A stretch of DNA of 64,000 nucleotides from Candidatus Woesearchaeota archaeon (GCA_016929255.1 JAFGJH010000041.1:4313-68312); one strand, 5' to 3'; shown: positions 15,664-55,789, counted from the first letter of the stretch. Numbers and translations: made by a program. The notes: generated by a model from the letters alone, not told the origin.

Positions 15664-15955
15664 TTAAAGCGGTGGCTGCAGCCACGCTGCTACCCTGCTG
15701 TCGGTTGCCATGTGAATTCTGTTTTGCTGGTTGCTGCGCAAACCCTGAAGAACAGACAAAAGCGCAACCATTCTGATTCTTTGGTCTGAGGACACGCAAA
15801 GAGCGGTGGCTGCAGCCACGCTGCTATCGGTCATGTTGGTTGCTATCTTTCTATCCTTTAGCCTGTTGCTGCGCAAACCCTGAAGAACAGACAAAAGTGC
15901 AACCATTCTGATTCTTTGGTCTGAGGACACGCAAAGAGCGGTGGCTGCAGCCACG
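15664..15955. repeat. tandem 134-135 bp repeat array (2 units) bounded by three copies of a palindromic hairpin motif
   Basis: GCGGTGGCTGCAGCCACG occurs at 15669, 15803 and 15938. The segment 15731-15820 matches 15866-15955 at 89 of 90 positions. The array lies between convergent gene ends. Confidence 0.9.
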
Positions 15956-16001
15956 AATTAATATTCATGGCCACTGCCGCTTTTCTGAAAATAATAAACA
16001 A

Positions 16002-22304: not shown

Positions 22305-22545
22305 ATCAGGGCAGCACAGCCAGGCTGCCAGTGGCGGCTGCTACGCTGCTATAGGCCATGTTGGTCGCTATCTTAGCAGCTTTCCTTCTGTTGCTGCGCA
22401 GACACCAAATAATAATAAAAAGTGCAAACCATTCCGATTCTTTGGTCTGATGACACGCAAAGAGCGGTAGTTCAGGCTTTGCATGAACATTGCAACCGTA
22501 GGTTGCTTTGGCAGCCACCATACAAGAAGAGGCGGCAGTGCTGCC
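22305..22545. repeat. single diverged copy of the 15664-15955 repeat unit plus extra hairpin motifs
   Basis: 22337-22468 aligns with unit 2 of the array (..ACGCTGCTAT.GG.CATGTTGGT.GCTATCTT.. and ..AAAAGTGCAA.CCATT.CGATTCTTTGGTCTGA.GACACGCAAAGAGCGGT). Inverted repeats GGCAGC..GCTGCC (22310-22329) and GGCAGTGCTGCC (22534-22545). It lies between convergent gene ends. Confidence 0.8.
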
Positions 22546-25190: not shown

Positions 25191-27049
25191 CTCTTAATTC
25201 CCTTGATTTTCTTAACTTTCCTGACTCTTTTGGCTCTCTCGACTTTCCTTACTTTTTTGACATTCCCTGTTTTCTTGACTCTCTTAACTTTCTTCATGCT
25301 CTTGACAGGCACTTCGTGCTCTGCGGGCTTTTCTGGCAACGTCTCCACTGTCCGCAGTTCCTCCGGGTGATATCTGCGATATCTGGATGCAAGCATGGCT
25401 ATTGACGCGAGCACGGCAAGCAAGACCAGGACAACCACCAAGACCTTCAGCCAGCCAGGCTGAGCAGGCCTTTCCGCAACCGGACCGAGCGCCTTCTCCA
25501 TTTCCTCTGCACTGGCATCGGTCTTCCTGCGCAGCTGCTCTTCCATGTCCGCAGCAGTCTCATCACCAACAATGACAGTCACCTTCCTGAAATGCGTGAT
25601 GTCCGGTTTCCGCGTAGGGACCGGCTCTGTGACATTCTCGGGCTCTATCGGAGACCTGACCCTGACAGCGAAGACAGAGAAGCCCGGCGACTCTGCCTCA
25701 TAGAAGAAACTCTCCCTATCCTCACCGGCCAGCTTCGTGTCCAGGTCAGACCAGACACCATCATGGTATCTTGTCACCACAATATCACCTGGAGACGCAT
25801 TCTTGAGATCCATCCATTCCTTGCTGACAGCAACCTCAATGACTGCACGGTCCACAGACAAATCATACAGGTTTGATGTGCTCACCTCAAAATACCAGTA
25901 TACATCGGGCAGATCCTTTCTTATGCTGACAGGCCTCTCTGAAAGAGGCGTAATGCGCACTTCCGCCCCATCAACAAAAGAGTTCAGCATGAGCCTAATT
26001 CCCTTGACGATGCTTTCTGCCATTGTCGGGCGCAGAACATATTCCTTGTGCGGCTCGAAGCTGCTTATAATGAAAGTCACCACGTTGTCGATAGTCCTGG
26101 CGAAGTAAGGCAGACCGCCCCCGCCCCCACCACCCGGAGGGCTGGGAGGGACGACCTTCACCAATCCAGGAAGCATCACGATGATCCTGGCCACTGACCC
26201 CTGACTCGGATTGTAGTCACTGTCAACACCAGCAATCTCGGTGACAGTGATCTTCTCCACAGTATTGTTGTAAGTGTAATCAGGAGGGATGACAAAATCA
26301 AGATAAATCTCTTTCATCTTCGTGCTGCTGCCGAGCTCAATGACATTCCTGAGCCAGCCATTGGTCGACCATCCCGTCGTGCTGGACTGGACATCATCAA
26401 AGAATCCTATCTCAGGAATAGATATGTCATCGACAAGCCATCCGTGCTCGGCATAATAATCATCACTGACATACCAGAACCTAAGCAGGATGACATCACC
26501 TGCGTAATGAGTGAGGTCCATGGTCTCAGGTGTCCAGTCAGAGACAGAGCCAGTGTAAGCAGGCGCGCCGGGCACACCGATGTATGCTCCAGGATCCCTG
26601 TAAGCGGTGGTGGTCGTGCCTGCCAGCTGAGACCAGGTGCTGCCATTGTCCGTCGAGACCTCCACGTACCCGAAATCCCAGCCGTACTCCACACTGTACT
26701 TGGTGTTGAATTTAAGCGTCGCAGAGGAGACACCGGTCAGGTTGAACTCCCGCTGAAGATAGACATCGCTCTTGTCCAACCTTGTCGAGTACCAGTAATT
26801 GTCAAGCCTGAACGCTGCGTAAGGCGCGAGCGTACCGTCGACAGCGAGCGCAACAGAAAGGTCCTCATTCGCCCCGTTGACCAGGAAATACTTGATGCTG
26901 GAAAGCTGACCAGGAGTGTACCTAACCTCCTTCTCAAAAGTGCCCAGGCCAATGGCCGCGACGCAGCTCGCGCCGGCAAAAAGGAGCAACAGCGCTAATG
27001 CGATGCCTCCGAACAGCCTATGGTCCATCTGCTTAATAGTATGTCTCAT
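25187..27049 (-). CDS. surface protein: signal peptide, InhA-like MAM/jelly-roll domain, PGF-pre-PGF-like domain, C-terminal TM anchor and Lys/Arg-rich tail
   Basis: ORF 25187-27064 (TTG); ATGs at 27049 and 27028. ATLKFNTKYSVEYGWDFGYVEVSTDNGSTWSQL...VILLRFWYVSDDYYAEHGWLVDDISI resembles the accessory domain of M6/InhA peptidases. aa ~320-468 resemble archaeal PGF-pre-PGF domains. TM segment WLKVLVVVLVLLAVLASIAMLA. The tail is KKVKRVKKTGNVKKVRKVERAKRVRKVKKIKGIKR. Confidence 0.8.
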   Translation of the reverse strand: MRHTIKQMDHRLFGGIALALLLLFAGASCVAAIGLGTFEKEVRYTPGQLSSIKYFLVNGANEDLSVALAVDGTLAPYAAFRLDNYWYSTRLDKSDVYLQREFNLTGVSSATLKFNTKYSVEYGWDFGYVEVSTDNGSTWSQLAGTTTTAYRDPGAYIGVPGAPAYTGSVSDWTPETMDLTHYAGDVILLRFWYVSDDYYAEHGWLVDDISIPEIGFFDDVQSSTTGWSTNGWLRNVIELGSSTKMKEIYLDFVIPPDYTYNNTVEKITVTEIAGVDSDYNPSQGSVARIIVMLPGLVKVVPPSPPGGGGGGGLPYFARTIDNVVTFIISSFEPHKEYVLRPTMAESIVKGIRLMLNSFVDGAEVRITPLSERPVSIRKDLPDVYWYFEVSTSNLYDLSVDRAVIEVAVSKEWMDLKNASPGDIVVTRYHDGVWSDLDTKLAGEDRESFFYEAESPGFSVFAVRVRSPIEPENVTEPVPTRKPDITHFRKVTVIVGDETAADMEEQLRRKTDASAEEMEKALGPVAERPAQPGWLKVLVVVLVLLAVLASIAMLASRYRRYHPEELRTVETLPEKPAEHEVPVKSMKKVKRVKKTGNVKKVRKVERAKRVRKVKKIKGIKR

Positions 27050-30000
27050 TCTGCTCACACTCAATATATGTTGTAGAGTATTTTATGCCTGGAGTCTCAT
27101 CAGTCGGAGACTCCAGCAGGACATGCAGGTTCGCTGCGTCAGAATCGTTCTGCCACTTGAAGCCATAGAAAGCCTCGAGCGCAGACGGGCTTGTTTTTGT
27201 CATGTAAATCCACGAGGAATCAAGCGCCCAGTCATAAGCCCCCGACTCGTTCACGCCCATCATGTACTGGTAGTACTTGTGCGGCATGGACAGGATGGAT
27301 GAGCTCTCCCAGAGATTTGTCGAGTAGACCCTCCCCTTTGCCTTCAGGTTGCCGTCATTCTCGAACGAGTAGGGCGGCGGATGGTTGTCAAGGGTGTCGT
27401 TTATGTGAGAGCCCCAGCCCTTCTGGTCGCAGATGGTCTGGTTGGGGTTGACGCACATGTTGCCGAAGTCCATCTCATCGCTTGGCTGGGTGCACGACGT
27501 TGTCGGCAGTATGCTAAAATTATAGACAACGCTCCACTCGCTGAGATTATAAGTGTCATCGGCCCTGACACGCCAATAATAAGTCGTGCTGAACTGCAGC
27601 CATGACAAGTCCCAGTAGTAAGTGAACGTGCTGCCTTCAGGGATGTCCATCTCCGCAACCTCAGGAGAGCCGAAATCAGAGTTGTCATCAACCTGAATCT
27701 CGTAAGTCACGCTGTCAGACAAGGTATGCTCAGGATTAAGCCAGCCATACACAGGGTTCCTCGAATCAGTGATTATGTCCTCCGCAGGTGGCTGCAAGAG
27801 TGTCGGCGGCTGTATCCTGTAATCTGTCCTGCTCGTTATCGGGCCCCAGTCAATGACATTTGCGCTGACATCACCTCCATTGACCGCGTTGTACGGGTAC
27901 TGCAGGCCGGCATCGCCGAAGCCGTTGTCCTGGGTGTCGTATATCTTGAGCAACTCAACACCGCCCCAGTAGTTACCGTGGGCGACGCTGCCCGATGTCG
28001 TGTTGAACTGGTTTCCCGCGGTGTCAGCGAAGGCATGGTAATCCGAGCTGTTCCTGAAACTGTTGTAATAAATCACATTGCCTGAAGATCCGCCTGTCAG
28101 ATAGGCACCATAAGTGCTGTTGAAGACCGAGTTGTTCCTTACTGTGGAGCCAGCAGTGCCGTCCAGATAAATGCCGTAAGTGTAATTAGAGGCATTGCAT
28201 GACTTCAATGTTATGTTTGTGAGGCTCCCTGCAGAGAAAGCCCTGCCTGTATCATTTCCAACCAGCAGGGTCCTGTCGCAGGTAAGCGTTATGTCGTTCG
28301 CCTTGAAGTTCACCAGGCCGTTGCCTGCAGCATCATCGACATAGTAAATGCCGCTGCAGAGCCAGGTGTCAGAGGTTAAGTTAAGGTCATCCCTCGGCGG
28401 GAATATGCTCGCGTTTGTGTCATCGCAGTCGTGATACAGATTATAGGTACAGCTGGTGATGTCGCTACCCTCAGCGCCATAGCCGTCGCCGTCCTCATCA
28501 GCGCAGTTCTTTATCGTGATCGGGCCCCAATCTGTCACGTTCACGCTGACCTTTCCGCTGAAAGTGGAGTTGTAGGGATACTCAGAGCCGAAATCACCAT
28601 AGCCGTCAAGATTCGTGTCATATATCTTCAGGCCAGAAACGTCATCCCAGAAGTTGCCCTGCGCAGCATCTCCGACAGTGGTGTTGAAATGGTTCTCGCT
28701 CCTGTCAGAGCAGGCATGATATACTCCGCTGCCCGTGAAGTTGTTATGGTGCAGGACATTGCCTGTCGAGTTGAGCAAGTAAACACCATATGTGCTGTTG
28801 AACAGCGAGTTGTTCAGGAATGTCGAGTCTGAAGTGCTGTTGAGGAAGATTCCTCTTGTGTAATTCTTGACCACGCAGCCTTCGACAGTAATGTTGTCCT
28901 TGCCGTTTGAGTAGAAGCCAAATCCCGAGATGTTCCCTATTATGGTAGTGTCATTGCACGTGGCAGTCACGCTGCCAGCGCCGAACTTTATCAGGCCGTC
29001 ACCAGCAGAGTCATTGAGGTAATATGTCCCGCTGCAGAATGTCACGTCCTGCGTGACCGTATAATCATCGTAAGGCGTCACGCAAGCGCTCTCAACCTCT
29101 GTATCGCAGCAGATCTTGGTCGCGTATGATCCCGCGCCAGTGCAGTTCCCGACCATGAGGTTGGTGTTGAGCCCTGTATCTGCCGACGATATCGAGGCAA
29201 CACATGTATCATAGGCCGAGCAGTCGGTGTTGTATGCGCATGTGATGTTGTAATTTTCAGTGCCGCTGAGGCAGATATCGTGAGGGTATGCGGCTTCGGA
29301 CACCTTCTCGACATGAGAGTTGGTCTCCGACTCCAGACGGAGTATGGGCTCTGCATCGGGGGCCGCGCAGTCCGTGCCGACTTTCTCTCCGTAGACCTCC
29401 CTGCAGCAAGCGATGTAGGGGTAGTTTGACTGCGTGTTCAACTCGGCATGAGCATTGAAAATGCTCGAGAGGCGGAACACTTCAGTGTATGAGCAATCAG
29501 GGGTGATTTCACAGTAGAGCTGGCTCACATAGTTCTCAGCCATAGCGTGCTGGTCGCCGAAAATGAAGAGAAGGTGGTGATGCCCTCCAGAGAGCTCAGT
29601 ATTGGTGAGGAACCCTGTCCCGTCACAGCTGTAGTCCTCGATGAACAGCGAGCTTATCACAATCGAGTCGTTCCCCGCGAGGTCAGAGTAGGTGTATGAA
29701 GCGCCATCATCCCCGATAAGCTTCATGCGGTAATGCGTGTACTCGCTGCCGCACCTGATCTCGATGAACAGCAGGTCATCCTCGGTGCTGTTGTCGTCTC
29801 TGAGGAATTCAGAGAACGTGGTGTTCATGACAGGGGTTATAGTCAGGTTAGCGGTCCCTTTGGTGGTGAAAAGCACAGTCCAATTGGCGCCCAAAGAAGG
29901 ATAGCTGTGCGTGTTTAAGATGCTTATAGCCTCACCGCCGCCAGTGCCTGTTATGCCTTCCACCCTGTACATCCTCACTCCTGCGATATCCACCTCTTCC

Positions 30001-32714
30001 ATCGTCACTGTCAGGGTCTCGGTCACCGTGGAATTACCTTCATCAGCCCTCGTCACATTGACCCTATTGACGCCAGGATATACATAGAACATCCCCCTGC
30101 AGCTTTCATTGACATCCATGATGGACTTTGCGTAAGGGCAGATGTAGGCGAGGCCTTCACCTGTCGACGGGATGTAAAGGGTCTTGGACGCGCTGACGAG
30201 CTCGCTCTGCTCCCTGACATCAACAGCTGATTTCCTCTCTGATGAAGATGACTCGACATTGATGCCGCTCAGGTCAATGTCAGACTCCGCATTGCCGAAA
30301 TATACCTCAAAAGAAGAGACATGGTTGCCTGACGCATCTTTCAGAAGGACAGCTTCAGTGCCGAACTGCCGCACCTCTGTCAGGTCGACAGCCTCATCAC
30401 CCTCAATTACTGCGGATGCATTGGCTTGGAGGGTGCGAACCCGCTTAGGGATGATGAGCATCTTGTCATACGCTGTAGCATAATCATACATCACGACACC
30501 ATCAGACCCGACTACAAAAGCTCCGGCAGAGGAATCTAAGCCCGCAATGGTGAGGTTATACCAGGACCACTCCCCTTCCTTAAGGGTGAGCGTGCTCAGG
30601 ATCCTGCCGGTGTTCTCCTCCATAAGGCGGATGGGCGCTGAATGCTCTGACCATGCATAAACGGATACGGTATCATTGTCTGACAGGCCAGAGCCGAATG
30701 CAAGCCTTAGCCTGTCGCCGCTTATCGTCGTTAAGTTCCCATCCTTTCCGGTCAGCATGGCGGTGACATCCTCCCCTGAAGAGAAGTTCTCTCCCAACAG
30801 CACTGCTGAAGCGAGGTCCACCTGAGGGATATCATAACTCAGGTCAAGCTCGTACTCCCGGCTCGAGAGGTGAGGCACAAGCCACTCTACGCGGTCAACC
30901 AAATAATCATTGTTCGAGTCGATGAACGTCAGGTTATCCACAGCCTCAACAGACGAGTCATTGTGCCTCCACTTCAGCTTCACAAGCCACTCCGGGACCC
31001 AGGCGACATCTGTATATGCGGTGACATTTGAGTAACCTATATCGCCGTAAATCACGACACTCTTGAGGTACTGGCTGTGCTCTGTCTCAGACTTCCAGGG
31101 ACCTGGCGTCTGGTATGATATTTCATATACCCTTGGAGCCGTCATGTTCTCTGTCAGGTTCATCTCGATATAGCTGCCTGAAATTTCAGGCAATGAATAG
31201 AGCACATCCTCTGAGATCAGGTCTAATGTCTCATTCACCACCCCTGTCGCGTTCCGGACAAGCTCCTCGATGGTCTCCGCACTGAAGAAGCTCCACTGCT
31301 GAGAGTACATGATTTCGTGGTTTAGCTCGCAGACAACATTCCAGGTGTGGGTACCGGGATCAAGACCAGTCACCTGGAAGAAGTTCAAGCCTTCAAGAAC
31401 GAGAATGTCGGTCTGGTTGACATTGCCGTCCAGGTGAAGGAGGCACTGGTCAAACTCCCTGTCAGTCTCGTAAAGCAGGTTGAAATTCCTTCCTCCTGTC
31501 TCATTGTCAGAGGGACTCAGAAGCCTGACAGGATGAGAATCAAGGGTGGCAGAGCCACTGACGCCGAAAAGCGAAGACAGCCAGCCAAAGAACTGCTGCA
31601 TAAGCCCTTTGTCTGTCTTGGCAGGGAATGCCGAGTACACACTCATAGGTGTGGGGCTCTCTATCCTTTGGACAGTCACCCTGGAACCCTCGAGGGTGAG
31701 GAAAACCGCTCTGCCGAATGCAATCCTGTCTTCACAGACCTTTTCACGGGAGGGAACCGCCGCCGCAGCCATTGCCTGCCCTTCCTGCCCCCCGCTGACA
31801 AGAGGAGTCTTGTAGACCTCGATGTATGAGGCCTGGTACGGGACAAAAGCCCTGATGACAACCTCTCCTGTCCTGTTAATGAATATCCGCCTTGTCCAAT
31901 TGACAGGGTTTCCCACCCTTGCGGAGCCCTGGACAAGCTCGCTCTGCAGCTCAGTGAAATCGGAAAAGTTGACGCTTATGTTGGTCAAGTTGAGCTCCAC
32001 GCTCATGTTGGCTGTAAAGTTGGAGATGTTGGCGACCGCAGTGAAGCTCTGCACATCGCTGGACCAATCGCCGAAAGCGCCGGAACAGTGTATCTTCCAG
32101 AGATACTCGCCGGGCTGGAGGTCCAGTGCCTCGAAATGGTTGAACCCTATCGGCGGGGTGTGCTTCTCAGCGGCAAGCCAGAACTCCTCCTGCAGGTACC
32201 TGTACAGGAAATAGAGGCCGCAAGTGTCTATTGAGGCGTTGCCACCGAGCTCGTATGAAAGGTTCACGCGCTCAGGGACGACCGATGAATCTTCAGGAGA
32301 GAGAATGGTTATGGTCAGCTCCTGAGAGATTTCCTGCAGCACCTCCGTAGTCATGTTGGTAATGTTGGTCTCGTTGGTTATGTCCGTAATCTCTGTCATG
32401 TTGGTGATGTTCGAAGTCAGGTTCAACGTAAGGTTGAGTGTCTCGTTGACAGCAGCATTCGTGAGATTTGTTTCATTGGTAATGGCTGTGTCGGTAATGT
32501 TGGTCAAGTTTTCAGTCTCATTAATCACTGAAAAACCGGTCATGCCCGCATTGCCTAAGAAATGCAGGAGTGAGAAAACGACCATTATGCTGAACAGAAT
32601 GATCAATATGTCTTTGGATGCCGAGTAACCAGGGGAATCGCCGAGCACATCATCCGCAGAGTTTTCCCTATGACCAGCAATCCCTTCTGATACCGCTTCA
32701 CCAGAGTTTTTCAT
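27033..32714 (-). CDS. giant (1893 aa) N-glycosylation-rich surface protein with two parallel beta-helix (PbH1/NosD-like) modules and Ig/FN3-like domains
   Basis: N-terminal TM/signal anchor (ILIILFSIMVVFSLLHFL). There are 13 N-x-T sequons in 57 aa. Duplicated modules CSGTYYLNDSAGDGLIKF...NNSLFNSTYGVYL...DWGPIT and CSGIYYVDDAAGNGLVNF...NNSVFNSTYGAYL...DWGPIT. The 3' end overlaps or abuts the next gene. Confidence 0.85.
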   Translation of the reverse strand: MKNSGEAVSEGIAGHRENSADDVLGDSPGYSASKDILIILFSIMVVFSLLHFLGNAGMTGFSVINETENLTNITDTAITNETNLTNAAVNETLNLTLNLTSNITNMTEITDITNETNITNMTTEVLQEISQELTITILSPEDSSVVPERVNLSYELGGNASIDTCGLYFLYRYLQEEFWLAAEKHTPPIGFNHFEALDLQPGEYLWKIHCSGAFGDWSSDVQSFTAVANISNFTANMSVELNLTNISVNFSDFTELQSELVQGSARVGNPVNWTRRIFINRTGEVVIRAFVPYQASYIEVYKTPLVSGGQEGQAMAAAAVPSREKVCEDRIAFGRAVFLTLEGSRVTVQRIESPTPMSVYSAFPAKTDKGLMQQFFGWLSSLFGVSGSATLDSHPVRLLSPSDNETGGRNFNLLYETDREFDQCLLHLDGNVNQTDILVLEGLNFFQVTGLDPGTHTWNVVCELNHEIMYSQQWSFFSAETIEELVRNATGVVNETLDLISEDVLYSLPEISGSYIEMNLTENMTAPRVYEISYQTPGPWKSETEHSQYLKSVVIYGDIGYSNVTAYTDVAWVPEWLVKLKWRHNDSSVEAVDNLTFIDSNNDYLVDRVEWLVPHLSSREYELDLSYDIPQVDLASAVLLGENFSSGEDVTAMLTGKDGNLTTISGDRLRLAFGSGLSDNDTVSVYAWSEHSAPIRLMEENTGRILSTLTLKEGEWSWYNLTIAGLDSSAGAFVVGSDGVVMYDYATAYDKMLIIPKRVRTLQANASAVIEGDEAVDLTEVRQFGTEAVLLKDASGNHVSSFEVYFGNAESDIDLSGINVESSSSERKSAVDVREQSELVSASKTLYIPSTGEGLAYICPYAKSIMDVNESCRGMFYVYPGVNRVNVTRADEGNSTVTETLTVTMEEVDIAGVRMYRVEGITGTGGGEAISILNTHSYPSLGANWTVLFTTKGTANLTITPVMNTTFSEFLRDDNSTEDDLLFIEIRCGSEYTHYRMKLIGDDGASYTYSDLAGNDSIVISSLFIEDYSCDGTGFLTNTELSGGHHHLLFIFGDQHAMAENYVSQLYCEITPDCSYTEVFRLSSIFNAHAELNTQSNYPYIACCREVYGEKVGTDCAAPDAEPILRLESETNSHVEKVSEAAYPHDICLSGTENYNITCAYNTDCSAYDTCVASISSADTGLNTNLMVGNCTGAGSYATKICCDTEVESACVTPYDDYTVTQDVTFCSGTYYLNDSAGDGLIKFGAGSVTATCNDTTIIGNISGFGFYSNGKDNITVEGCVVKNYTRGIFLNSTSDSTFLNNSLFNSTYGVYLLNSTGNVLHHNNFTGSGVYHACSDRSENHFNTTVGDAAQGNFWDDVSGLKIYDTNLDGYGDFGSEYPYNSTFSGKVSVNVTDWGPITIKNCADEDGDGYGAEGSDITSCTYNLYHDCDDTNASIFPPRDDLNLTSDTWLCSGIYYVDDAAGNGLVNFKANDITLTCDRTLLVGNDTGRAFSAGSLTNITLKSCNASNYTYGIYLDGTAGSTVRNNSVFNSTYGAYLTGGSSGNVIYYNSFRNSSDYHAFADTAGNQFNTTSGSVAHGNYWGGVELLKIYDTQDNGFGDAGLQYPYNAVNGGDVSANVIDWGPITSRTDYRIQPPTLLQPPAEDIITDSRNPVYGWLNPEHTLSDSVTYEIQVDDNSDFGSPEVAEMDIPEGSTFTYYWDLSWLQFSTTYYWRVRADDTYNLSEWSVVYNFSILPTTSCTQPSDEMDFGNMCVNPNQTICDQKGWGSHINDTLDNHPPPYSFENDGNLKAKGRVYSTNLWESSSILSMPHKYYQYMMGVNESGAYDWALDSSWIYMTKTSPSALEAFYGFKWQNDSDAANLHVLLESPTDETPGIKYSTTYIECEQNETYY

Positions 32715-32907: not shown

Positions 32908-33651
32908 ATGAAACTTACTCTAGCAGAACCGAACTACCTAAAAGACAGCGTCTCAATCATCTCAGAGCTCGTAAATGAGGCCTCTTTCAAGATCAAAACC
33001 AATTCCATGGAACTTGTGGCCATGGACCCTGCGAACGTGGCGATGGTCATATTCAAACTCCTGTCCAGCGCATTCACTGAATATAAGGTAGAGAAGGAGA
33101 CAGACCTTGCGATAAACCTCACCAACCTCAAGCAGATACTCAAGAGGGCCAAATCCTCAGATTCACTCACCATGGAGATAGAGGAGGACAAGCTCAAGAT
33201 AACCCTCCAGGGCAACTCAACAAGGACATTCTACCTGCCGATAATAGACATAGAGGAAAAGGAGCAGAGGATACCAGACCTCCACTTCCCTGTCACGATA
33301 AAGACAAAGACAGATGTCCTGAACGACGCGATAGATGACGTGGACGTGGTCGCAGAGTCAGTAAGCTTCATCATAGAGCCAAAGAAGATGACAATACTGG
33401 CCGAAGGGGACCTCAGCAAGGCAAAGATAGAGATACCATCCAAAGGCGATACCATAATAGTCTCAGACACGCCCGACAAGATAAGGGCAAAGTACTCGAT
33501 AGAATACCTCAAGAAGATGATAACAGCATCAAAGCTGGCGAACGAGGTCACGATACAGTTCAACAAGGACTATCCTCTCAAGCTCGAGTACAAGTCAGTT
33601 GACAAGCTCTTCATGAGCTTCATACTCGCGCCGAGAGTGGAGAACGACTGA
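32908..33651 (+). CDS. pcn: DNA polymerase sliding clamp (PCNA)
   Basis: 247-aa ORF with an archaeal PCNA-like N-terminus (LKDSVSIISELVNEASFKIKTNSMELVAMDPANVAMV) and the expected length. Confidence 0.88.
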   Translation: MKLTLAEPNYLKDSVSIISELVNEASFKIKTNSMELVAMDPANVAMVIFKLLSSAFTEYKVEKETDLAINLTNLKQILKRAKSSDSLTMEIEEDKLKITLQGNSTRTFYLPIIDIEEKEQRIPDLHFPVTIKTKTDVLNDAIDDVDVVAESVSFIIEPKKMTILAEGDLSKAKIEIPSKGDTIIVSDTPDKIRAKYSIEYLKKMITASKLANEVTIQFNKDYPLKLEYKSVDKLFMSFILAPRVEND

Positions 33652-33687
33652 AGAGGCGGTCGCCGACTTCAACGGAGTTGTCGTGTG

Positions 33688-34170
33688 ATGAGGCCTGTCA
33701 CGCTCGTATATTGTCTGCGCGAAGATTCTGTTCTATTAGGCCTGAAAAAGCGCGGTTTCGGCGCAGCAAAGCTGAACGGCTACGGCGGAAAGGTCCATGA
33801 GGGAGAGACTGTCGAACAGGCAGCAGTCAGAGAACTGAAAGAGGAAGCAAAAATAGATGCATACCCTTCTGACCTGGAAAAAGTCGCTGAGATAGACTTC
33901 TTTTTTGCCGATGTCCCGAAGGAAAAAGGCTGGGACCAGACAGTGCACGTGTATTTCCTCAGCAGATGGATAGGCGAACCTAAAGAGACAGAGGAGATGA
34001 AACCCGTATGGCATTCCCAGAAAGCACTTCCCACAGACAGGATGTGGGCGGATGACCCTTACTGGCTGCCGGAGGTGTTTGGCGGACGAAAACTACGCGC
34101 CTCTTTCACATTCAGCAAGCAAGGGGAATCTGTCAAGGATTATTCTATCGATTTTGTATATTCCCTGTGA
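33688..34170 (+). CDS. NUDIX hydrolase (MTH1/MutT-like)
   Basis: Nudix box GGKVHEGETVEQAAVRELKEEAKI. The context NGYGGKV resembles 8-oxo-dGTPase-type enzymes. Confidence 0.8.
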   Translation: MRPVTLVYCLREDSVLLGLKKRGFGAAKLNGYGGKVHEGETVEQAAVRELKEEAKIDAYPSDLEKVAEIDFFFADVPKEKGWDQTVHVYFLSRWIGEPKETEEMKPVWHSQKALPTDRMWADDPYWLPEVFGGRKLRASFTFSKQGESVKDYSIDFVYSL

Positions 34171-34176
34171 ATTTTC

Positions 34177-35346
34177 CTATGAACGCAGATTCAGCTCAGC
34201 CACCGCCTCAACATGATTCGTCTGCGGGAACAGGTCGAAGAGCGCGAGGGATTTCAGTTCGTATTCTATGGCAAGGACCTTCAGCTCTTTGGCCATCTGC
34301 TGGGGATTGCATGAGACATAAACGATGACCTCGGGCCTGAGCTGCAGAAGCCTCTTGAGCGTCTTTGGGTGCATGCCGCTCCTCGGAGGATCAGTCACCA
34401 CGAACAGCCGCCTCCCCTTATACCTGTCCGCCAATGACTTCTTGCTTATGCCTGAAGCATCAAGACAGACCGCTTCCGTGTTCTTCAGCCTGTTTCTCTC
34501 GATGTTCATCTTCGCGCACACGATGCTCTCAGGAACAGACTCCCCAATCAGACAGTCCCTGAACATGCCTGCAAGAGAGACTCCGAAAGTGCCCACGCCG
34601 CCATAAAGGTCAAGGAGAGAGGCATCATTGGTGCAGTGCTTCTCCAGAAGAGACCGCAAATACTCCACCATCCTCTGCGCCATCGCAGAGTTGTTCTGGA
34701 AAAAACCCTGGCTATGGAAACAAAGGACTGTGCCTGAAAACTCCTCCTCGAGGAACACATCACCCTTGACTGCAAAGAAATCATCAGAGACGCTGACATC
34801 AGTCCTGCTGTGCACCCTTGCTATGACAACATTCTCTGCAGAAGTGCTCTCTGCAAAGGACTTAATCAGATCGATATGCGCAGACTGCCTCTGCGAGTCA
34901 GAATTCAGCACGAATGAGACTGCCGAGGAGGACGCAAACTCAGAAGCCCTGATGAGCGCATAGCGCAAAGTGCCCTTCTTTGTCCGGATATCAAACGGGT
35001 CAATCGCTTCCCTGTTCCTCCCAAACCAGTCCCAGACCTCGGCAAGAAGAGAATTAAGTTTATTGTTGGATATCTCGCAACGCTTCACGGCGACGATGCG
35101 GTCGAACTGGCCCTTTTTCCTGAAACCAACACCGTCCTGGAAGAAGATGAAATCCATCCTGTTCCTGTAATGATAAGGCTCACCGTGGAATACTTCAGTT
35201 TCGCCGGGCAAAGCTATGCCGCTCTTCCTGAGTGCAGAGAGGACAAGCTCTTTCTTGTTCTTCAGCTGTAGCTCATAAGGCACGTGCTGAGAGACGCAGC
35301 CGCCGCACTCCCCGAAGTAAGGGCATGGAGGTTTTATGGGTTCCAT
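34177..35346 (-). CDS. RumA/TrmA-family RNA (uracil-5-)-methyltransferase
   Basis: N-terminal Cys cluster CPYFGECGGC, SAM-binding region, DPPRSG, and the catalytic VSCNP motif. There is no N-terminal TRAM domain. Confidence 0.8.
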   Translation of the reverse strand: MEPIKPPCPYFGECGGCVSQHVPYELQLKNKKELVLSALRKSGIALPGETEVFHGEPYHYRNRMDFIFFQDGVGFRKKGQFDRIVAVKRCEISNNKLNSLLAEVWDWFGRNREAIDPFDIRTKKGTLRYALIRASEFASSSAVSFVLNSDSQRQSAHIDLIKSFAESTSAENVVIARVHSRTDVSVSDDFFAVKGDVFLEEEFSGTVLCFHSQGFFQNNSAMAQRMVEYLRSLLEKHCTNDASLLDLYGGVGTFGVSLAGMFRDCLIGESVPESIVCAKMNIERNRLKNTEAVCLDASGISKKSLADRYKGRRLFVVTDPPRSGMHPKTLKRLLQLRPEVIVYVSCNPQQMAKELKVLAIEYELKSLALFDLFPQTNHVEAVAELNLRS

Positions 35347-35382: not shown

Positions 35383-35832
35383 CTAAACCTTGTCCTTCAC
35401 AGTCTCCCATGTCCGCTGCATCACTCCGATCCAGCCCCTCAAAAAAGAATTCCTGTGGAACGGATGCCTGAACCTCTTCTCAAGAGAACAGCGTTCTATG
35501 TGATCCTCAATCTCCTCAGGAAGGACAAACCTTTTCCTCTCAGAAAACACCATCGAGCCCCAATACCTCAACTGGTCGTAGCTGGACCTTGAAAGAAAAT
35601 CCTGCGCAAGCCTTACACCCAGATTGAAGCTCTCCATGCGCTGGCCCTGGACATCCGACCTAAGGCGCTCGATGAGCTTCCTGGTCTGCTCGACCATCGG
35701 CGGGACATCCGCGATCAGCTCAACCTCCTTCAGCAGTGCGTTCGAGCATACCTTAGATATGTTCAGCCGGTCCTTGTGCTCCCTGACCTTAGCCAGGACC
35801 TCATCAGGGATGTGGATGGAGATCTTTGCCAT
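35383..35832 (-). CDS. protein with N-terminal ribbon-helix-helix-like segment and uncharacterised C-terminal domain
   Basis: 149-aa ORF. AKISIHIPDEVLAKVREHKDRLNISKVCSNALLKEV looks RHH/CopG-like. A GAGGAG Shine-Dalgarno lies ~8 nt upstream, so the mRNA leader must run through repeat 35860-36055. Confidence 0.6.
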   Translation of the reverse strand: MAKISIHIPDEVLAKVREHKDRLNISKVCSNALLKEVELIADVPPMVEQTRKLIERLRSDVQGQRMESFNLGVRLAQDFLSRSSYDQLRYWGSMVFSERKRFVLPEEIEDHIERCSLEKRFRHPFHRNSFLRGWIGVMQRTWETVKDKV

Positions 35833-35859
35833 GTTTAGCTCCTCTATGAAAAACCAATC

Positions 35860-36055
35860 TGCCGCGAGCAGTGCTGCAGCACAGCGACGCTTGTTTTACC
35901 TGCGCCGCCACCAGAGCGCCCGCTCTGCATGATCTGCTGAGTGTATTTCCGAGAGTTTGGTCTGTCGCATATTGTTCCACCAGCTCGCAAGGCGCTGGTG
36001 GCGGCGTTAGTTTAATCTCTCGCAGGCTGGCGTTGCCTGCCTTGCCTGTGGCGAT
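35860..36055. repeat. GC-rich hairpin-bounded intergenic element (subfamily shared with 46350-46467 and 53919-54026)
   Basis: GCAGTGCTGCAGCACAGCGACGCT (35868-) matches 46355- at 23 of 24 positions. CCAGCTCGCAAGG is shared with 53999-. There is an extra inverted repeat GCAGGC..GCCTGC at 36022-36040. Confidence 0.75.
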
Positions 36056-36388
36056 GTTCTTAAAGGTATTACCAGTATATACAAGTAATAATATAAAACC
36101 ACGCCAAATGATTTTTTATCAGAAAGAGAAATGCCATGGGTGTTACCGGTGTGCAGAGCAAAAAAATACTGTGAGGTAATACTTTCCATACAAGTAATAC
36201 TTTGCCGCAAAGACAATCTTCCGCCGAAACATTCATACGGAATTTCAGGAAAGATTTATATCCTCAAAAATCTATATAGCAGAATATAATTACAAAAATT
36301 TCATAAAAGGAGAGATGACGTAAAAAATTCGGTTCCGACGACAGGGGATGGGAGACGACACAGACACCATCGACTTTCACTCCTGATC

Positions 36389-39382
36389 ATGAGGTCCTTA
36401 AAGGGATTTACAAATCAAAGGGAATTCAAAGGGCCTTCACCCCGCCCAAAGGCACCCCCTGAAGATGTTTCTCATATCTTAAGCGCCGGATACTTTCCAT
36501 TCCTCAAGAGATACAGCACAAAAGAGAGCTTCGGTGAGAAGAACCGCTACCAGAAGATAAAGATAACCTCGGTGGACCGCTTCGAGGAGTGCATAACAGG
36601 CATACGCGAAAGAATCACGGCTTCGCGCACCGGAACAGGAAGCAGCACAAAAGGCCTGCTCTTCTGCGGCCCTGTCGACGGAGTGGACGAGGTCCTAAGC
36701 GCATATGCCAGCATATGCTCAAATGAAGACACTGCATACGCCATATTCTTTGACATAAACCCATATAAGATAGACTACTTCACCTTCAGGCTCTTCCTGA
36801 CACGCATATCAGAGACAAGGGAAGAGTACTTCAGGAACCTATTTTTCTACCTGCAGGGGGACAAGGCAATGCCTGCCATGCAAATACTCGAAAAAGCCGC
36901 AAGAAACACGGTGACAAAGGAGCTGCACGCGGACTACCTCATACACCTGACAAAACAAAGGCTACAGGACAGGGCGCAGCTTCTTAGGCCATACATAAAG
37001 AAGGGCATAGAGCTCCTGAACATCGTCAGAGAAGGGAGAACGCACTACAAAAGCCTCGCAAAGAGGCTTGCCCAGAACATCAATCTCAATCCTTCCACGC
37101 ACTGGCTCTCCGACGAGAGACACTACCAGGCAGTGCGCGAGGCAAGCGTGAGCGAGAGGATAAAGGCAGTACAGGCAGATCTTAACAGGGGAGGCAAGAA
37201 AGAGATACTCAGGATAATAAAAGAGACGGGTCTCAGGCCAGCGCTGCTGTACATACCCAAGGGCAAGAAGAAGTTCTCAGGAAGCGGGGAGCTCGTCGAG
37301 ACATTCGAGACATGCGTAGACACTTTACCCCCGCAGAGCAAGAAAGAGAAGCACAGGGTATGGAACATCATGGAGCCAGAACGCTTCTTCTCGACTCCTC
37401 AGTTCCAGCACCAGGGCGAGCTCTCAGGCAAGCAGCTCATGCTCCTCACAGAGGACTACAAGCAGAGGACCAGCATAACAAGGAAATTTGACGAGAGATG
37501 CAGCATAATGCTCCTCGGAGACGTGCCTTTCGGAAGGCTCTACCTTGATGACAGGTCAAGGAAGTTCATCGACAAGATACAGGAATACGCCAACAGGTAC
37601 GATGTGAAGCACATAGCGCTCTGCGGCGACATCATCGACGGCGAGCACACCCGGGAGAAGAGGAAGCTCGCACTGCTCCAGTACCTGTCAGACGAGCCCC
37701 AGCCCTCAATAGAGCAGCAGTGCAGGCTCGCGGCAGATTTCATATCAGGGTTCAAAGGCAATGTCTACTCAGTCACTTCCGACGGCGACTGGGACATAAT
37801 AGAGGAGAAGCAGAGAGAGCTCATAAACCAGAAGGAATTCCAGTACAAGATAGAGAAGAACACAGGCCACATACCTGACGACGTCAGGAAAAGCCTCAGG
37901 GTCGAGGCGATATTCGAGGCGGCAAAGGAATACTATGACTATGTCGAGCGTCAGATAAAGCTGTCCGAGAAGATAGGAGACTCGCTGCACCTGAACTTTG
38001 ACACGGCCAGCGTCAGGCTTTCGCACATGAGCATAGGCCAGTATTTCAGGAGGAGCCTCTCAAAGTCCGTCGGGGTGAAGGAGCAGCAGATAATAAACCA
38101 GCTTCTGGCCCTGCACGACAGCGAAGAGCAGAAAGACATTGAGGTCAAGGTCAGCTCGCACGACAACGTGCTCCAGGCCAGCATGGAGACTGAAAACACG
38201 CTAAACATCAGGGTGCCGTCGCTCGAGTCACCGACACAGTACGATTCCATACCTGTACAGATAAGGAGCGCGGTCCAGGACACTATGCACAAAGCACTTT
38301 CTGTCAGGGGAAAGATGCCCTTCCTATCATCGTGCAAAGTAGAGGTCACGGACGACGCACGAATACTCATAACAGTCATAAACGAGAAGCTGCTCAACAT
38401 GCTGGAGCAGCACAAGAGCCTGCCTGCAGAGGAATATATCATATTCAGCCTCACAGACACGCACGTAGGGTCAATAGCGAACAGGCATGACTACCTCATA
38501 AAATACATGGACTATGCCAAGAGCCTGGCGCAGAAGCTCCAGGAGAAGCAAGGCATAAGGAAGGTTGGCAGGATAGCCATTCTCAACGGCGACCTCGTCG
38601 AAGGAATAAACTACCCTACAGCGATGATGAGGAACGCTCCCACAAGGCTGGTCATACCGCAGACCCAGGTAAGCTGCGCACTGGAGCTCATGAAGCCGTT
38701 CTTCTTCACAGAAAAAGAAGGCCAGCTCAAGATAGACAAAGACATAGAACACATCTTGCTGACGCACGGAAACCACGAGTACAACTCAGGGTTCATACAC
38801 AGCGGCATGATGGCAACCCAGACAGTACTCCAGTACTTCAAGGCGCACATGGAACGCGAGTATGGCCCTGAAGAGGTCAAAAGAAGGCTGATGTACAGCC
38901 TCTACGTCAGCGTAGACCGCAACAAAACACTTTTCACTTCGATAGGCGCGTTCTCAAAGCTCGGCCTGAACGTCCACATGATGCACTCATACGGCGGAAG
39001 GCCGAACATGGCAAACGCCACGCCGCCCCAGGAAAGGTGGGTAACGAAGATGGGAAGCCTCGCAAAGCCATGGGACATACTCATCCAGGGCCACTACCAC
39101 CAGTTCTCGCTCGGCGAAGTGGCAGGAAAGGTCCTTCTTACATTCCCATCTTTCACAGAGGTCTCGGACTTCGAGTATGAACGGGGGCTGGACTCGCCGA
39201 TGTGCGGGGTCCTGCTCCACCTGTCATCGAAATACGGCCTTGTCATAGAGATACTGACAAGGAGATTCCTGGACAGCTACAAGTGCCAGCACCCGATGTT
39301 CAGAAACATAAGCGTCAAGAGATTCTACGAGCAATGCGTCGAGAAGGCGCTCGAGCCGGCGGACCTGACAGGGTTCAGGTAG
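36389..39382 (+). CDS. 997-aa orphan protein: unknown N-terminal region + degenerate metallophosphoesterase-like module + intact calcineurin/Mre11-type metallophosphoesterase module
   Basis: Intact motifs: DTH (aa 690-692), GDLVEG (733-738), GNHE (794-797), HMMH (863-866), GHYH (901-904). The upstream module keeps GDIIDGEH (413-420) but has DVP and DGDWD where DxH and GNHD/E are expected. Confidence 0.75.
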   Translation: MRSLKGFTNQREFKGPSPRPKAPPEDVSHILSAGYFPFLKRYSTKESFGEKNRYQKIKITSVDRFEECITGIRERITASRTGTGSSTKGLLFCGPVDGVDEVLSAYASICSNEDTAYAIFFDINPYKIDYFTFRLFLTRISETREEYFRNLFFYLQGDKAMPAMQILEKAARNTVTKELHADYLIHLTKQRLQDRAQLLRPYIKKGIELLNIVREGRTHYKSLAKRLAQNINLNPSTHWLSDERHYQAVREASVSERIKAVQADLNRGGKKEILRIIKETGLRPALLYIPKGKKKFSGSGELVETFETCVDTLPPQSKKEKHRVWNIMEPERFFSTPQFQHQGELSGKQLMLLTEDYKQRTSITRKFDERCSIMLLGDVPFGRLYLDDRSRKFIDKIQEYANRYDVKHIALCGDIIDGEHTREKRKLALLQYLSDEPQPSIEQQCRLAADFISGFKGNVYSVTSDGDWDIIEEKQRELINQKEFQYKIEKNTGHIPDDVRKSLRVEAIFEAAKEYYDYVERQIKLSEKIGDSLHLNFDTASVRLSHMSIGQYFRRSLSKSVGVKEQQIINQLLALHDSEEQKDIEVKVSSHDNVLQASMETENTLNIRVPSLESPTQYDSIPVQIRSAVQDTMHKALSVRGKMPFLSSCKVEVTDDARILITVINEKLLNMLEQHKSLPAEEYIIFSLTDTHVGSIANRHDYLIKYMDYAKSLAQKLQEKQGIRKVGRIAILNGDLVEGINYPTAMMRNAPTRLVIPQTQVSCALELMKPFFFTEKEGQLKIDKDIEHILLTHGNHEYNSGFIHSGMMATQTVLQYFKAHMEREYGPEEVKRRLMYSLYVSVDRNKTLFTSIGAFSKLGLNVHMMHSYGGRPNMANATPPQERWVTKMGSLAKPWDILIQGHYHQFSLGEVAGKVLLTFPSFTEVSDFEYERGLDSPMCGVLLHLSSKYGLVIEILTRRFLDSYKCQHPMFRNISVKRFYEQCVEKALEPADLTGFR

Positions 39383-46349: not shown

Positions 46350-46467
46350 TAGCGGCACTGCTGCAGCACAGCGACGCTCGCAGCACTTATTGTAACTATG
46401 ATTCTTCCGCGAGTTGGCCAACAAATTATTGGCCGCCTGGCTCGCAGGTCGTCAGTGCTGCAGCAGC
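46350..46467. repeat. GC-rich hairpin-bounded intergenic element (subfamily with 35860 and 53919)
   Basis: Terminal near-palindromes GCACTGCTGCAGCAC (46355-46369) and CAGTGCTGCAGCAGC (46453-46467). Internal TTCCGCGAGTTGG...CTGGCTCGCAGG. Confidence 0.75.
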
Positions 46468-53918: not shown

Positions 53919-54026
53919 CCGCACCACTGCCACAGCGCTCGCTCCAATCCATCATCCTCTCCGCCATTCCGCGAGTTGGTCAAGCGCGTATATTTCCGCC
54001 AGCTCGCAAGGCGGTGGCAGCGGCGC
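53919..54026. repeat. GC-rich hairpin-bounded intergenic element (subfamily with 35860 and 46350)
   Basis: The left arm ..CCACTGCCAC.. is complementary to the right arm ..GTGGCAG... Internal 9-bp stem GCGAGTTGG (53971-53979) / CCAGCTCGC (53999-54007). TTCCGCGAGTTGG is shared with 46405-. Confidence 0.75.
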
Positions 54027-54081
54027 TTGAGCAAGTGTATTTTAAAGCAGGCTAAATCTTTTAAACACCAAAGCGATATGT

Positions 54082-54112: not shown

Positions 54113-55789
54113 ATGGCAGAAAGGATGGATCCAATAACGCTGAGCAGGGTGCTCAGGCACTACAAGCGCATAGAAGTGCAGAACGAGATAGTCAAGGCTG
54201 CGCAGAACAAAGAGGCAGTCGGAAGCTTCGGCGGCAAAGGATACGCCAAAAGGCCTGACGTCCTCATCTATCCGAACGATGTGATGGAACAGGTCAAGAA
54301 CGGCGTCACATCATTCCATGTCTCAGAAGAGCTCTGGTCCAACCCGCAGAGGATAAGCACAGAGATGAAGAAACAGGAGTACGAGGACCTCAGGACAGGA
54401 TGGGACCTTGTCCTGGACATCGACTGCCCGCAATGGGAATTTGCGCGAATAGTCAGCTGGCTGTTCATCAAGGCGCTCAGGGAGCATGACATCGACGCGA
54501 TAACAGCAAAGTTCTCAGGAAACAAGGGTTTCCACATAGCAGTGCCATTCGAGGCATTCCCTGAAAGAGTCCATGACGCGCAGACAAAAGACCTGTTTCC
54601 CGACGGGCCGCGGAAGATAGCAGCATACCTCCTCGACTACATAGGCAAGAAACACGTCAAGGTCAAGGAAGACACGGTTGTCTTCGGCGACAGGTTCAGC
54701 TACACACTCAAGGACCTTAAGGATAAGACGGGCAAGACAACAGAGGAGCTGGTGCAGACGTACTGCACGAACTGCGGAAAGAAGAAAAGCGCAGCAGGAG
54801 GCCGACAGGTGCAGTTCATCTGCCCTCAATGCAACATGACAATCGCAGGCAGAGAGGACGAGCAGTACAAGACCTGCCCAAAGTGCAGGATAATAATGGA
54901 GAAGGAAGTGATAGACACATCAAAGAAATGCTGCCTAAAGCCGAGGATGACGAAAGTCTTCAACCCGTTGTCCATCGTCGAGGTGGACACAGTGCTCATA
55001 GCACCAAGACACCTCTACAGGGCGCCTTATTCTTACCACGAGAAGTCAGGACTAGTATCAGTGCCGATACACCCTGACAGGATACTCGGGTTCGAGAAGA
55101 AAGAGGCAGAGCCGGACAGCATAAAGACCGGAAGACACGCTTTCCTCGAAAGGGAAGGCATCGTCGCCGGCCAGGCAAAGAAACTGCTTGTAGAGGCGTT
55201 CGACCTTGCAGCGCGCAAAGAGCAGAAGATGCGGGAGATAGAGGAAGGGACAAAGATAGAGAGGCACTTGCTCAACAAGGAATTCGAGGAAGTGCAGACA
55301 GCGATACCTGAAAAGTTCTTCCCACCATGCATACAGCAGATATCAAAAGGGCTGACAGACGGAAAGAAACGCGCAGTATTCATACTGACCAACTTCCTGA
55401 CAAGCTGCGGCTGGGACTATGGTGCTGCTGAAGAATGGATGAAGGAGTGGAACCAGCGCAACTCAGAGCCATTGCGGGACCAGTACTACCTCGGCCAGAT
55501 AAGGTACGCAAAGCAGCAGAAGAAAAAGGTCCTTCCTCCGAACTGCGACAATTCAGCATACTACAAGAGCTTCGGCGTGTGCAAGCCAGACAACTTCTGC
55601 AAATACATCAAGAACCCAGCAAACTACGCCATCAAGAGGGCAAGGTATGCCCAGAGAGAGGAAGGGAAGGGGAAGAGGAAGGGAAATAAAGTGGAAGAGA
55701 GATCCGGAAAGCAGGCAAAAGAGCAGGTCATCCAACCTGTTCCTGAACCACCCAAATCTGTCCCCAACAAGCAAAGCCAAAGTTTATAA
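54113..55789 (+). CDS. single-chain archaeo-eukaryotic primase: PriS-like catalytic domain with Zn-ribbon insert fused to a PriL C-terminal (Fe-S) -like domain
   Basis: AEP motifs WDLVLDIDC, SGNKGFHIAVP, RAPYSYHEKSG. Cys pairs C218/C221 and C237/C240, plus C255/C258. C-terminal FFPPCIQQI...C478...C490...C496, resembling the PriL-CTD Cys pattern. Lys-rich tail. Confidence 0.8.
   Translation: MAERMDPITLSRVLRHYKRIEVQNEIVKAAQNKEAVGSFGGKGYAKRPDVLIYPNDVMEQVKNGVTSFHVSEELWSNPQRISTEMKKQEYEDLRTGWDLVLDIDCPQWEFARIVSWLFIKALREHDIDAITAKFSGNKGFHIAVPFEAFPERVHDAQTKDLFPDGPRKIAAYLLDYIGKKHVKVKEDTVVFGDRFSYTLKDLKDKTGKTTEELVQTYCTNCGKKKSAAGGRQVQFICPQCNMTIAGREDEQYKTCPKCRIIMEKEVIDTSKKCCLKPRMTKVFNPLSIVEVDTVLIAPRHLYRAPYSYHEKSGLVSVPIHPDRILGFEKKEAEPDSIKTGRHAFLEREGIVAGQAKKLLVEAFDLAARKEQKMREIEEGTKIERHLLNKEFEEVQTAIPEKFFPPCIQQISKGLTDGKKRAVFILTNFLTSCGWDYGAAEEWMKEWNQRNSEPLRDQYYLGQIRYAKQQKKKVLPPNCDNSAYYKSFGVCKPDNFCKYIKNPANYAIKRARYAQREEGKGKRKGNKVEERSGKQAKEQVIQPVPEPPKSVPNKQSQSL

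Follow-up and report, generated by a model that had tools for sequence, protein, structure and literature searches.

We analyzed a gene for a 997-amino-acid protein in a 64,000-nucleotide stretch of DNA (the window; GCA_016929255.1, JAFGJH010000041.1:4313-68312), which comes from the chromosome of a Woesearchaeota (DPANN) archaeon. The gene is real and strongly conserved, and its product is a three-part cytoplasmic enzyme in which an N-terminal domain (the N domain) is followed by two tandem metallophosphoesterase (MPE) modules, a dead one in the middle (the M module) and a C-terminal one that appears live (the C module). The protein is a member of a wider, so far undescribed family within a well-known superfamily, with a new architecture. 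The reading that we prefer, at a probability of about 0.5, is that it is a single-chain, pseudo-dimeric phosphodiesterase that probably acts on nucleic acid in housekeeping end processing or turnover. What the data below show is the fold, the homology, the conservation of the ligands, the selection, and the distribution; the substrate and the pseudo-dimer geometry are inferred. The features that carry this reading are as follows.

36389..39382, + strand: gene for the 997-amino-acid protein, stop codon included (open reading frame [ORF] list and translation)
37466..38248, + strand: M module, dead MPE duplicate, residues ~360-620 (hhalign, Foldseek, ligand variability, and the ratio of nonsynonymous to synonymous substitution rates [dN/dS])
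37781..37954, + strand: helical hairpin insertion in the M module, residues ~465-522 (helices 465-490 and 497-522 in both models)
38414..39268, + strand: C module, MPE domain with a metal center that is intact by its motifs and family conservation, residues ~676-960
38456-38464, + strand: motif I, DTH, D690-T-H692 (this and the next four from the translation)
38588-38605, + strand: motif II, GDLVEG, G734-D-L-V-E-G739
38768-38779, + strand: motif III, GNHE, G794-N-H-E797
38984-38986, + strand: motif IV, H866
39089-39100, + strand: motif V, GHYH, G901-H-Y-H904

A preliminary description of this DNA had given the ORF at 36389-39382 as 997 amino acids long and had quoted a set of motifs, all of which we recovered from the ORF list and the translation; the nucleotide ranges that it gave for the two MPE modules correspond to residues ~371-600 and 683-960.

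The calcineurin-like MPE superfamily is recognized by five motifs that supply seven metal-binding or catalytic residues (D-x-H, G-D, G-N-H-(D/E), H, and G-H-x-H), and all five motifs are present in the C module of the window protein. We examined their conservation in 95 full-length proteins, a set that takes in the window protein, its close clade, and the relatives from the cluster search described below, and that we classified with our own domain hidden Markov models. D690, G734-D735, G794-N795-H796, and H866 were 100% conserved, and H902 and H904 were conserved at 96% and 97%, respectively. Near-invariance of the ligands is the pattern expected of an active binuclear center, and judged by its sequence the C module, whose ligand set is complete, is a binuclear-metal phosphoesterase of the calcineurin/Mre11 type. 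Position 692 in motif I is His in the window protein and in 17% of the 95 proteins and is Gln in the other 83%; the D-x-Q form also occurs within the close clade, in P0009, P0013, P0014, and P0016. We read D-x-Q in motif I as a family signature and as an unusual change at a metal ligand. Thus, the full set of calcineurin/Mre11-type motifs that the preliminary description had placed in the C-terminal module stood up to this comparison, with ligands 96 to 100% conserved apart from the motif I His.

Pfam Metallophos gave no match to the window protein at an E value of ≤1, short of its curated threshold, and the superfamily membership of the C module therefore rests on the motifs, on PHROG and hhalign matches, and on the fold. 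The statistically best annotated match of the 997-amino-acid protein was to the MPE "exonucleases" of phage replication modules (PHROG 284 and PHROG 7339). The phrog_284 profile, annotated "exonuclease," matched the window protein with an E value of 8.8e-12 and 17 of 29 family members with a best E value of 1.5e-12, and orf63 of Lactobacillus phage LP65 matched the family in hhalign with a probability of 95% (E value, 2e-8). LP65 orf63 is annotated "exonuclease" and as similar to g98 of phage K, and it sits among primase, polymerase, and RusA genes. Motifs II to V of these phage proteins can be aligned with those of the C module, motif V (HYHxFSL) and the following strand included. The phage proteins are ~400 to 430 amino acids long with a single MPE domain, however, whereas the window protein has both a dead duplicate and an N domain that they lack, and BLAST-level similarity between them and the family is absent or insignificant. 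Taken together with the DP1 matches described below, the phrog_284 and LP65 orf63 matches lead us to lean toward a nucleic-acid substrate.

In the M module of the window protein, the segments equivalent to the motifs read D378-V-P380, G413-D-I-I-D-G-E-H420, D465-G-D-W-D469, and S-H-D-N. When the M and C modules were compared by hhalign using a 29-sequence alignment, they matched with a probability of 82.6% and an E value of 9.6e-6 over 218 columns, and motifs I, II, III, and V fell in register, pairing LLGDVPFGR with SLTDTHVGS, LCGDIIDGEH with LNGDLVEGINY, SDGDWD with HGNHEYN, and SSHDNVLQA with QGHYHQFSL. With the close clade only, an alignment that is too shallow for the purpose, the probability was 15% and the likeness was confined to motif II. 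A model of residues 340 to 680 was also searched against the PDB with Foldseek, and 17 of the top 18 matches were MPE proteins, including purple acid phosphatase (the best, with an E value of 4.7e-4), lambda phosphatase, Mre11, Vps29, PP5/PP1, and the Pol zeta B subunit. The TM-scores were low (0.25 to 0.49, on a model with a pLDDT of 68), and we take this result as supporting the assignment, not as proof of it.

The positions of the M module that are equivalent to metal ligands were variable across the 95 proteins; D414, for example, was Leu in 47 of them. The M module is an ancient duplicate of the same MPE fold whose metal ligands have been lost, and the loss of these residues, together with their variability across the family, implies that the module is noncatalytic. 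An inactivated-plus-active MPE tandem had been proposed in the preliminary description, and the hhalign match, the MPE-dominated Foldseek matches, and the ligand loss all support it. The M module has nevertheless been kept under purifying selection as strong as that on the live C module (dN/dS, 0.045 versus 0.052). No indel was found in the 341 residues of the M-module region across the clade, and the 55-residue helical hairpin is nearly invariant in the Woesearchaeal clade, with many invariant charged residues. Over the whole gene, dN/dS measured against the orthologous locus L003 was 0.089, and for the N domain it was 0.16.

Lambda phosphatase, PP5, and PP1 among the matches of the M model, and viral Ser/Thr phosphatases among the BFVD matches, might point to a protein Ser/Thr/Tyr phosphatase of the PPP/lambda-phosphatase type. 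We consider this highly improbable, because these matches reflect a shared fold, mainly that of the dead module, and no sequence-level match to PPP families was found. Moreover, the live module has GDxx(E/Q/H)G as motif II, where PPP enzymes have GDxVDRG, and in its motif III the residues after GNHE are (W/Y)N(S/T) and not the PPP signatures.

Mre11/SbcD nucleases work as homodimers, and polymerase B subunits and Vps29 are MPE folds that have been retained as inactive scaffolds. It is because such homodimers and such scaffolds are known that we propose a pseudo-heterodimer for the 997-amino-acid protein, in which the dead M module would replace the second protomer of an Mre11/SbcD-type homodimer and leave one active site. 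The helical hairpin of the M module might then serve as a substrate- or partner-binding arm, and the ligand of the N domain might be a nucleotide-type compound or nucleic acid. The C module would most likely cleave phosphodiester bonds of nucleic acid, in an exonuclease or end-processing reaction, and its role in this reduced genome would be one of housekeeping, in the turnover of DNA or RNA or the processing of their ends. Synteny near PCNA, RFC, PAN, and lipid-synthesis genes, presence as a single copy at each locus, and the lack of a match in PADLOC place the gene in a housekeeping context.

Mre11/SbcD has the same fold and ligand set as the C module, Mre11 structures are among the top Foldseek matches of the M model, and the Mre11/SbcD homodimer may be mirrored by the fused dead-plus-live pair. 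The differences are that Mre11/SbcD usually has its Rad50/SbcC partner in the same operon, whereas none is among the annotated neighbors of the 997-amino-acid gene; that it carries a C-terminal capping/DNA-binding domain, whereas the 997-amino-acid protein gave no Pfam Mre11_DNA_bind match; and that motif I of the family is mostly DxQ. We found no Rad50/SbcC-like gene among the large ORFs of the window or within ±10 kb of an orthologue, as the preliminary description had remarked for the surroundings of the gene. Vps29 likewise keeps the MPE fold for a noncatalytic scaffold and matched the M model in Foldseek with a probability of 0.98. It is a stand-alone eukaryotic retromer subunit of 190 amino acids, whereas the M module is fused to its live paralogue and carries the 55-residue hairpin. 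The Pol zeta B subunit, among the Foldseek matches of the dead module, brings in the polymerase B subunits as a precedent for an inactive MPE scaffold.

The small subunit of the archaeal polymerase PolD, DP1, calls for separate consideration, since a highly divergent DP1, or an accessory or proofreading polymerase subunit resembling the B subunits, could also account for several matches. The motif I-II signature DxHVGS...GDxV(D/E)GIxYP of DP1 is also found in the C module (as DxHVGS...GDxVxGIxYP), both are archaeal, and PCNA is encoded two genes away. DP1 was the only recurrent NCBIfam match (PRK04036, 6 of 29 members), all six weak PDB sequence matches were to DP1, and a "DNA polymerase II small subunit" was matched in BFVD with a probability of 0.94. 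The PRK04036 match to the window protein (E value, 9e-7) scored 28.2 bits against an equivalog cutoff of 445 bits, however, and covered residues 670 to 741 only, a stretch of ~70 residues. DP1 consists of an OB fold and a phosphodiesterase domain and works with DP2, whereas the window protein is double that size (~1,000 amino acids), is built of an N domain and tandem dead and live MPE modules, and showed no OB domain in Pfam or in the models. We found no DP2-like or DP2-sized gene either in the window or at the orthologous loci, no locus has an adjacent DP2, and some members of the family occur in a bacterial context. Only Baldrarchaeia and Aenigmatarchaeota are reported to lack DP2 while retaining DP1 (PMC12680538), which by inference implies an ordinary PolD in Nanoarchaeota. 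We therefore regard a divergent DP1 or B-subunit-like protein as very unlikely. Orthology to DP1 or Mre11, which the preliminary description had named among the outcomes that would overturn its view, was not found, the DP1 score standing at 28 bits.

The main rival to a nuclease is an enzyme whose live module hydrolyzes a nucleotide-derived small molecule (a cyclic or linear nucleotide, a dinucleoside polyphosphate, or a nucleoside diphosphate sugar) in salvage or signaling. Automatic annotations of the source proteins read "predicted phosphodiesterase" and "LpxH," one family member matches the YfcE family, and the fold of the N domain is of a nucleotide-binding type. Several neighboring genes also fit: a NUDIX gene lies nearby in the window, a PNP/UDP nucleoside phosphorylase gene lies next to or near the family gene in L024 and L020, and in two bacterial relatives (L017, 13366-13911, and L021, 2262-2807) there is a 4-nucleotide overlap between the stop codon of the family gene and an NT5C (5'(3')-deoxyribonucleotidase) gene. 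This overlap in two loci of bacterial context suggests cotranslation and a link to deoxynucleotide turnover. The NT5C neighbor would fit nuclease-fed salvage of deoxynucleoside monophosphates equally well, however, the neighbors vary by lineage with none kept across the family, and the strongest annotated matches are to exonuclease and DP1 families. On balance, we judge a small-molecule substrate to be somewhat unlikely.

Several observations weigh against a pseudo-dimeric phosphodiesterase that acts on nucleic acid. MPE domains with the same ligand set hydrolyze many substrates other than nucleic acid. The motif I His, the seventh canonical ligand, is replaced by Gln in most family members, and Pfam Metallophos was matched weakly by only 7 of 29 members (best E value, 1.5e-4). 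The function of the phage relatives is one of annotation, and we found no experimental characterization of them. The structure models are mediocre (mean pLDDT, 66 and 68; below 50 for residues 838 to 937; Foldseek TM-scores, 0.25 to 0.5), and the matches of the N domain other than that to 6ulo are weak (E values, 0.06 to 1). Finally, no neighbor is common to the Woesearchaeal clade and the distant subgroups.

The N domain and the remaining parts of the protein were delimited as follows.

36476..37393, + strand: N domain, residues ~30-335, predicted alpha/beta domain of the Rossmann type, methyltransferase-like, into which a large helical part is inserted (AF2, Foldseek)
36650..36760, + strand: supposed Walker A/B segment, KGLLFCGPVDGVDEV...AIFFDINPY, a strand, Gly/Asp loop, helix, and strand ending in Asp (predicted secondary structure)
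38306..38413, + strand: linker with a beta-hairpin, residues ~640-675, before the live module (strands predicted at 648-653 and 658-664)
39269..39379, + strand: C-terminal tail with a conserved ALEPxDL(T/S)xF end (clade alignment)

Two models were used, a full-length AF2 model with a mean pLDDT of 66 and the model of residues 340 to 680 alone, with a pLDDT of 68. The N domain is the best-modelled part (pLDDT mostly 70 to 93 in AF2). In Foldseek, the full-length model matched PDB entry 6ulo, an uncharacterized protein of Leptospira interrogans, with an E value of 1.6e-6 over 306 columns. Weaker N-domain matches were to AviRa (E value, 0.059) and TYW4, and phage DNA adenine methyltransferases matched the model with probabilities of 0.66 to 0.95 (BFVD/Foldseek). 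6ulo and class I methyltransferase folds (AviRa, TYW4, and phage Dam-like proteins) are the best structural matches, and they come without sequence similarity. Judged by size and model confidence, the 6ulo and methyltransferase matches would fall on the N domain, which models as a Rossmann-type, methyltransferase-like domain, and we assign no ligand to it. At the sequence level, Pfam DUF7790 was weakly matched (E value, 1.3e-3), and neither Pfam nor the PDB profile search gave a diagnostic methyltransferase motif or family-model match for this domain.

The preliminary description had, very tentatively, seen in the N region a likeness to an AAA+ Walker A/B pair with VDE in place of GK(S/T). The predicted secondary structure there is a strand at 90-95, a helix at 99-110, and a strand at 116-122, and the N domain has a Gly-rich loop and an acidic residue ending strand 2. 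We rejected a decayed AAA+/P-loop, since the elements are only ~25 residues apart and the strand-loop-helix-strand-Asp order is a Rossmann layout. The loop contains neither lysine nor Ser/Thr, the family consensus at this segment, GNxGGxDxxLSLYAN...VDRK, has no lysine and no GK[ST], no AAA+/P-loop NTPase match to the N region was found in Pfam or Foldseek, and the Rossmann spacing and methyltransferase-like matches likewise speak against the Walker assignment. In the linker, the phrog_284 match begins inside, at residue 654, and the P0017 alignment spans the linker.

The preliminary description had called the protein an orphan, which it is not. A word-indexed search returned 16 homologues, full-length or partial, with 52 to 90% identity, mostly from metagenome-assembled genomes (MAGs) of Woesearchaeota/Nanoarchaeota; the close homologues come from such MAGs and from one single-cell genome. 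Profile searches of the same word index returned the same 17 proteins and added nothing, whereas an exhaustive profile search of 1.84 billion representatives gave 130 clusters at an E value of ≤1e-3 and 90 at ≤1e-10. Among the 95 full-length members, the M and C modules were present in all, the same N domain in 53, and a different N-terminal region in 42. What defines this family of ~1,000-amino-acid proteins is the tandem M-C core. Full-length orthologues with 67 to 90% identity were found in eight distinct loci, and in a collection of species-representative genomes the close clade occurred in only 7 species, all Nanoarchaeota/Woesearchaeota. Distant members lie on a 1.16-Mb contig that encodes a Hef with 54% identity to that of the window; this contig probably belongs to another DPANN-type archaeon. 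Other members lie on AT-rich contigs with bacterial neighbors (RelA/SpoT, KsgA, VanY, and PASTA). The distant-subgroup profile found no members in IMG/VR, and tblastn gave no significant match in GenBank phages. Searches of Pfam, NCBIfam, and PHROGs with the protein and 29 relatives gave only weak or partial matches and none above a curated Pfam or NCBIfam threshold, and PDB sequence and profile searches with the whole protein, the family profile, and the N-domain profile gave only sub-threshold DP1 matches or spurious ones (NDUFA6). A literature search found nothing on the family, on 6ULO or DUF7790, on tandem or inactive MPE domains, or on MPE in DPANN or candidate phyla radiation (CPR) organisms.

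DPANN archaea have minimal genomes. That a 3-kb gene is kept under strong purifying selection (dN/dS, ~0.09) in such a genome implies that its function is likely to be important. The family, with at least 130 clusters at 50% identity, offers a clear natural case of a tandem-duplicated phosphoesterase domain with one copy retired to a structural role, and bears on whether a fused pseudo-dimer can stand in for an Mre11/SbcD homodimer. It may point to an unrecognized nuclease or nucleotide-salvage activity in organisms that rely on hosts for nucleotides, and its substrate, once defined, would annotate about a hundred large "hypothetical proteins." A bolder proposal, which we think doubtful, is that these proteins form an unrecognized class of single-chain, pseudo-heterodimeric Mre11/DP1-like nucleases in DPANN archaea and some AT-rich bacteria, with a nucleotide-binding/methyltransferase-like or alternative N-terminal region, that would replace a partner-dependent end-processing or proofreading nuclease or feed DNA/RNA salvage.

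The gene order around the 997-amino-acid gene, which is single copy per locus, is PCNA, a 149-amino-acid gene (RHH149), the 997-amino-acid gene, p286, p188, CarS, CDP-alcohol phosphatidyltransferase, and phosphatidylserine decarboxylase, and it is kept in the eight distinct orthologous loci. The departures are that L004 lacks p286 and that the short contig of L003 ends before PCNA and before the genes beyond p286. RFC and PAN lie nearby as well on an orthologous contig of 261 kb, along with peptidases and an aminoacyl-tRNA synthetase of class I (tRNA-synt_1b). Besides PCNA (32908-33651), the window encodes CDP-archaeol synthase, Hef, a proteasome-activating ATPase, and a primase in which PriS and PriL are fused. 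Shared gene order among genomes as close as these (PCNA, 84 to 93% identical) is a poor guide to function. The neighborhood is one of core genes and not a defense island.

The surroundings had been described at the outset as an accessory or defense-type setting, with the gene bracketed by repeat copies and next to a ribbon-helix-helix (RHH) domain gene. An accessory or antivirus defense effector, mobilized with flanking repeats and controlled by an adjacent RHH regulator, would suit a large, multidomain, nuclease-like protein with a small putative DNA-binding neighbor always adjacent and one dispersed repeat copy upstream. We regard this as most improbable. The neighbors are core genes in fixed order in eight distinct loci, PADLOC gave no match for the 997-amino-acid protein and no consistent match in the family, and the dN/dS of 0.09 and the 67 to 90% identity track those of core genes. 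The distant-subgroup profile also found no members in IMG/VR, and GenBank phages gave no significant match, as noted above; the repeat is missing in 6 of the 8 loci; and the operator-like sites belong to the RHH149 promoter. Only a single repeat copy adjoins the 997-amino-acid gene, upstream at ~35868-36050, and on the other side the nearest copy starts only at 46355, ~7 kb beyond the gene, so that the gene is not bracketed. We rejected flanking repeats as a mobile-element signature, since there is one adjoining copy and six of the eight distinct orthologous loci lack it. The RHH label of the neighbor likewise lacks Pfam or PDB-profile support: the N terminus of the 149-amino-acid protein (KISIHIPDEVL...NISKVCSxALLKEVE) is RHH-like by eye only, and no assignment was obtained for its C-terminal 100 residues.

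The ATG start of the 997-amino-acid gene is backed by an invariant ...TCC..ATCATG in 8 orthologous upstream regions, and the N terminus MRS(L/F)(K/R) is common to the proteins of the orthologous loci and the close homologues. The leader gave no Rfam match and showed no conserved fold. One upstream feature was defined from invariant blocks in eight aligned upstream regions.

36250..36277, + strand: promoter-like AAAGATTTATAT and CTATATA boxes, ~110-140 nucleotides 5' of the ATG

The 149-amino-acid gene (35383-35832, - strand) always adjoins the MPE gene. Two conserved palindrome-like elements (GGTATTACC...GTATATACAAGTAATA), at 36062-36099 and 36174-36203, overlap a TATA-like box; their cores, ATACAAGTAATA, lie at 36079 and 36188 (2 exact core matches in the window versus 0.07 expected), and the elements are also present in orthologous loci. 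In L004, where the 149-amino-acid gene is inverted, the palindromes move along with it and end 5 nucleotides before its ATG, which argues that they belong to the promoter of that gene. They look like the promoter/operator of a leaderless autoregulated gene. A 225-nucleotide GC-rich insert at 35833-36060 (L003, 628-860), which the window shares with its closest relative alone, parts the start codon of the 149-amino-acid gene from its conserved promoter/operator and is one copy of the dispersed repeat.

These dispersed GC-rich intergenic repeats lie at 15671-15965 (two tandem copies), 22331-22491, 35868-36050, 46355-46378, and ~53976-54040. Copies are 75 to 96% identical between some pairs, in an otherwise compact genome, and might be MITE-like or REP-like.

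Neither p286 nor the conserved upstream gene of subgroup B loci gave relatives in the PDB. Genes for a NUDIX hydrolase and a tRNA (uracil-5)-methyltransferase (tRNA-U54) are inserted between PCNA and the 149-amino-acid gene at 33685-35346; at least the methyltransferase gene is present at the contig edge of L003, and the insertion is absent from the other six distinct orthologous loci. A 558-amino-acid ORF at 54113-55789 (+ strand) matches the PriS and PriL Pfam families and is apparently a fused primase. Two large ORFs are without a Pfam match, one of 810 amino acids with Gly-rich GGC repeats (9962-12394, + strand) and one of 675 amino acids (1143-3170, - strand). A 1,893-amino-acid protein (27033-32714, - strand) with NosD/right-handed beta-helix and immunoglobulin-like domains is probably a surface protein. 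Its gene has 9-nucleotide-periodic repeats near the 5' end (32345-32530), and its homologues in related loci are 37 to 53% identical, far below the neighboring core genes.

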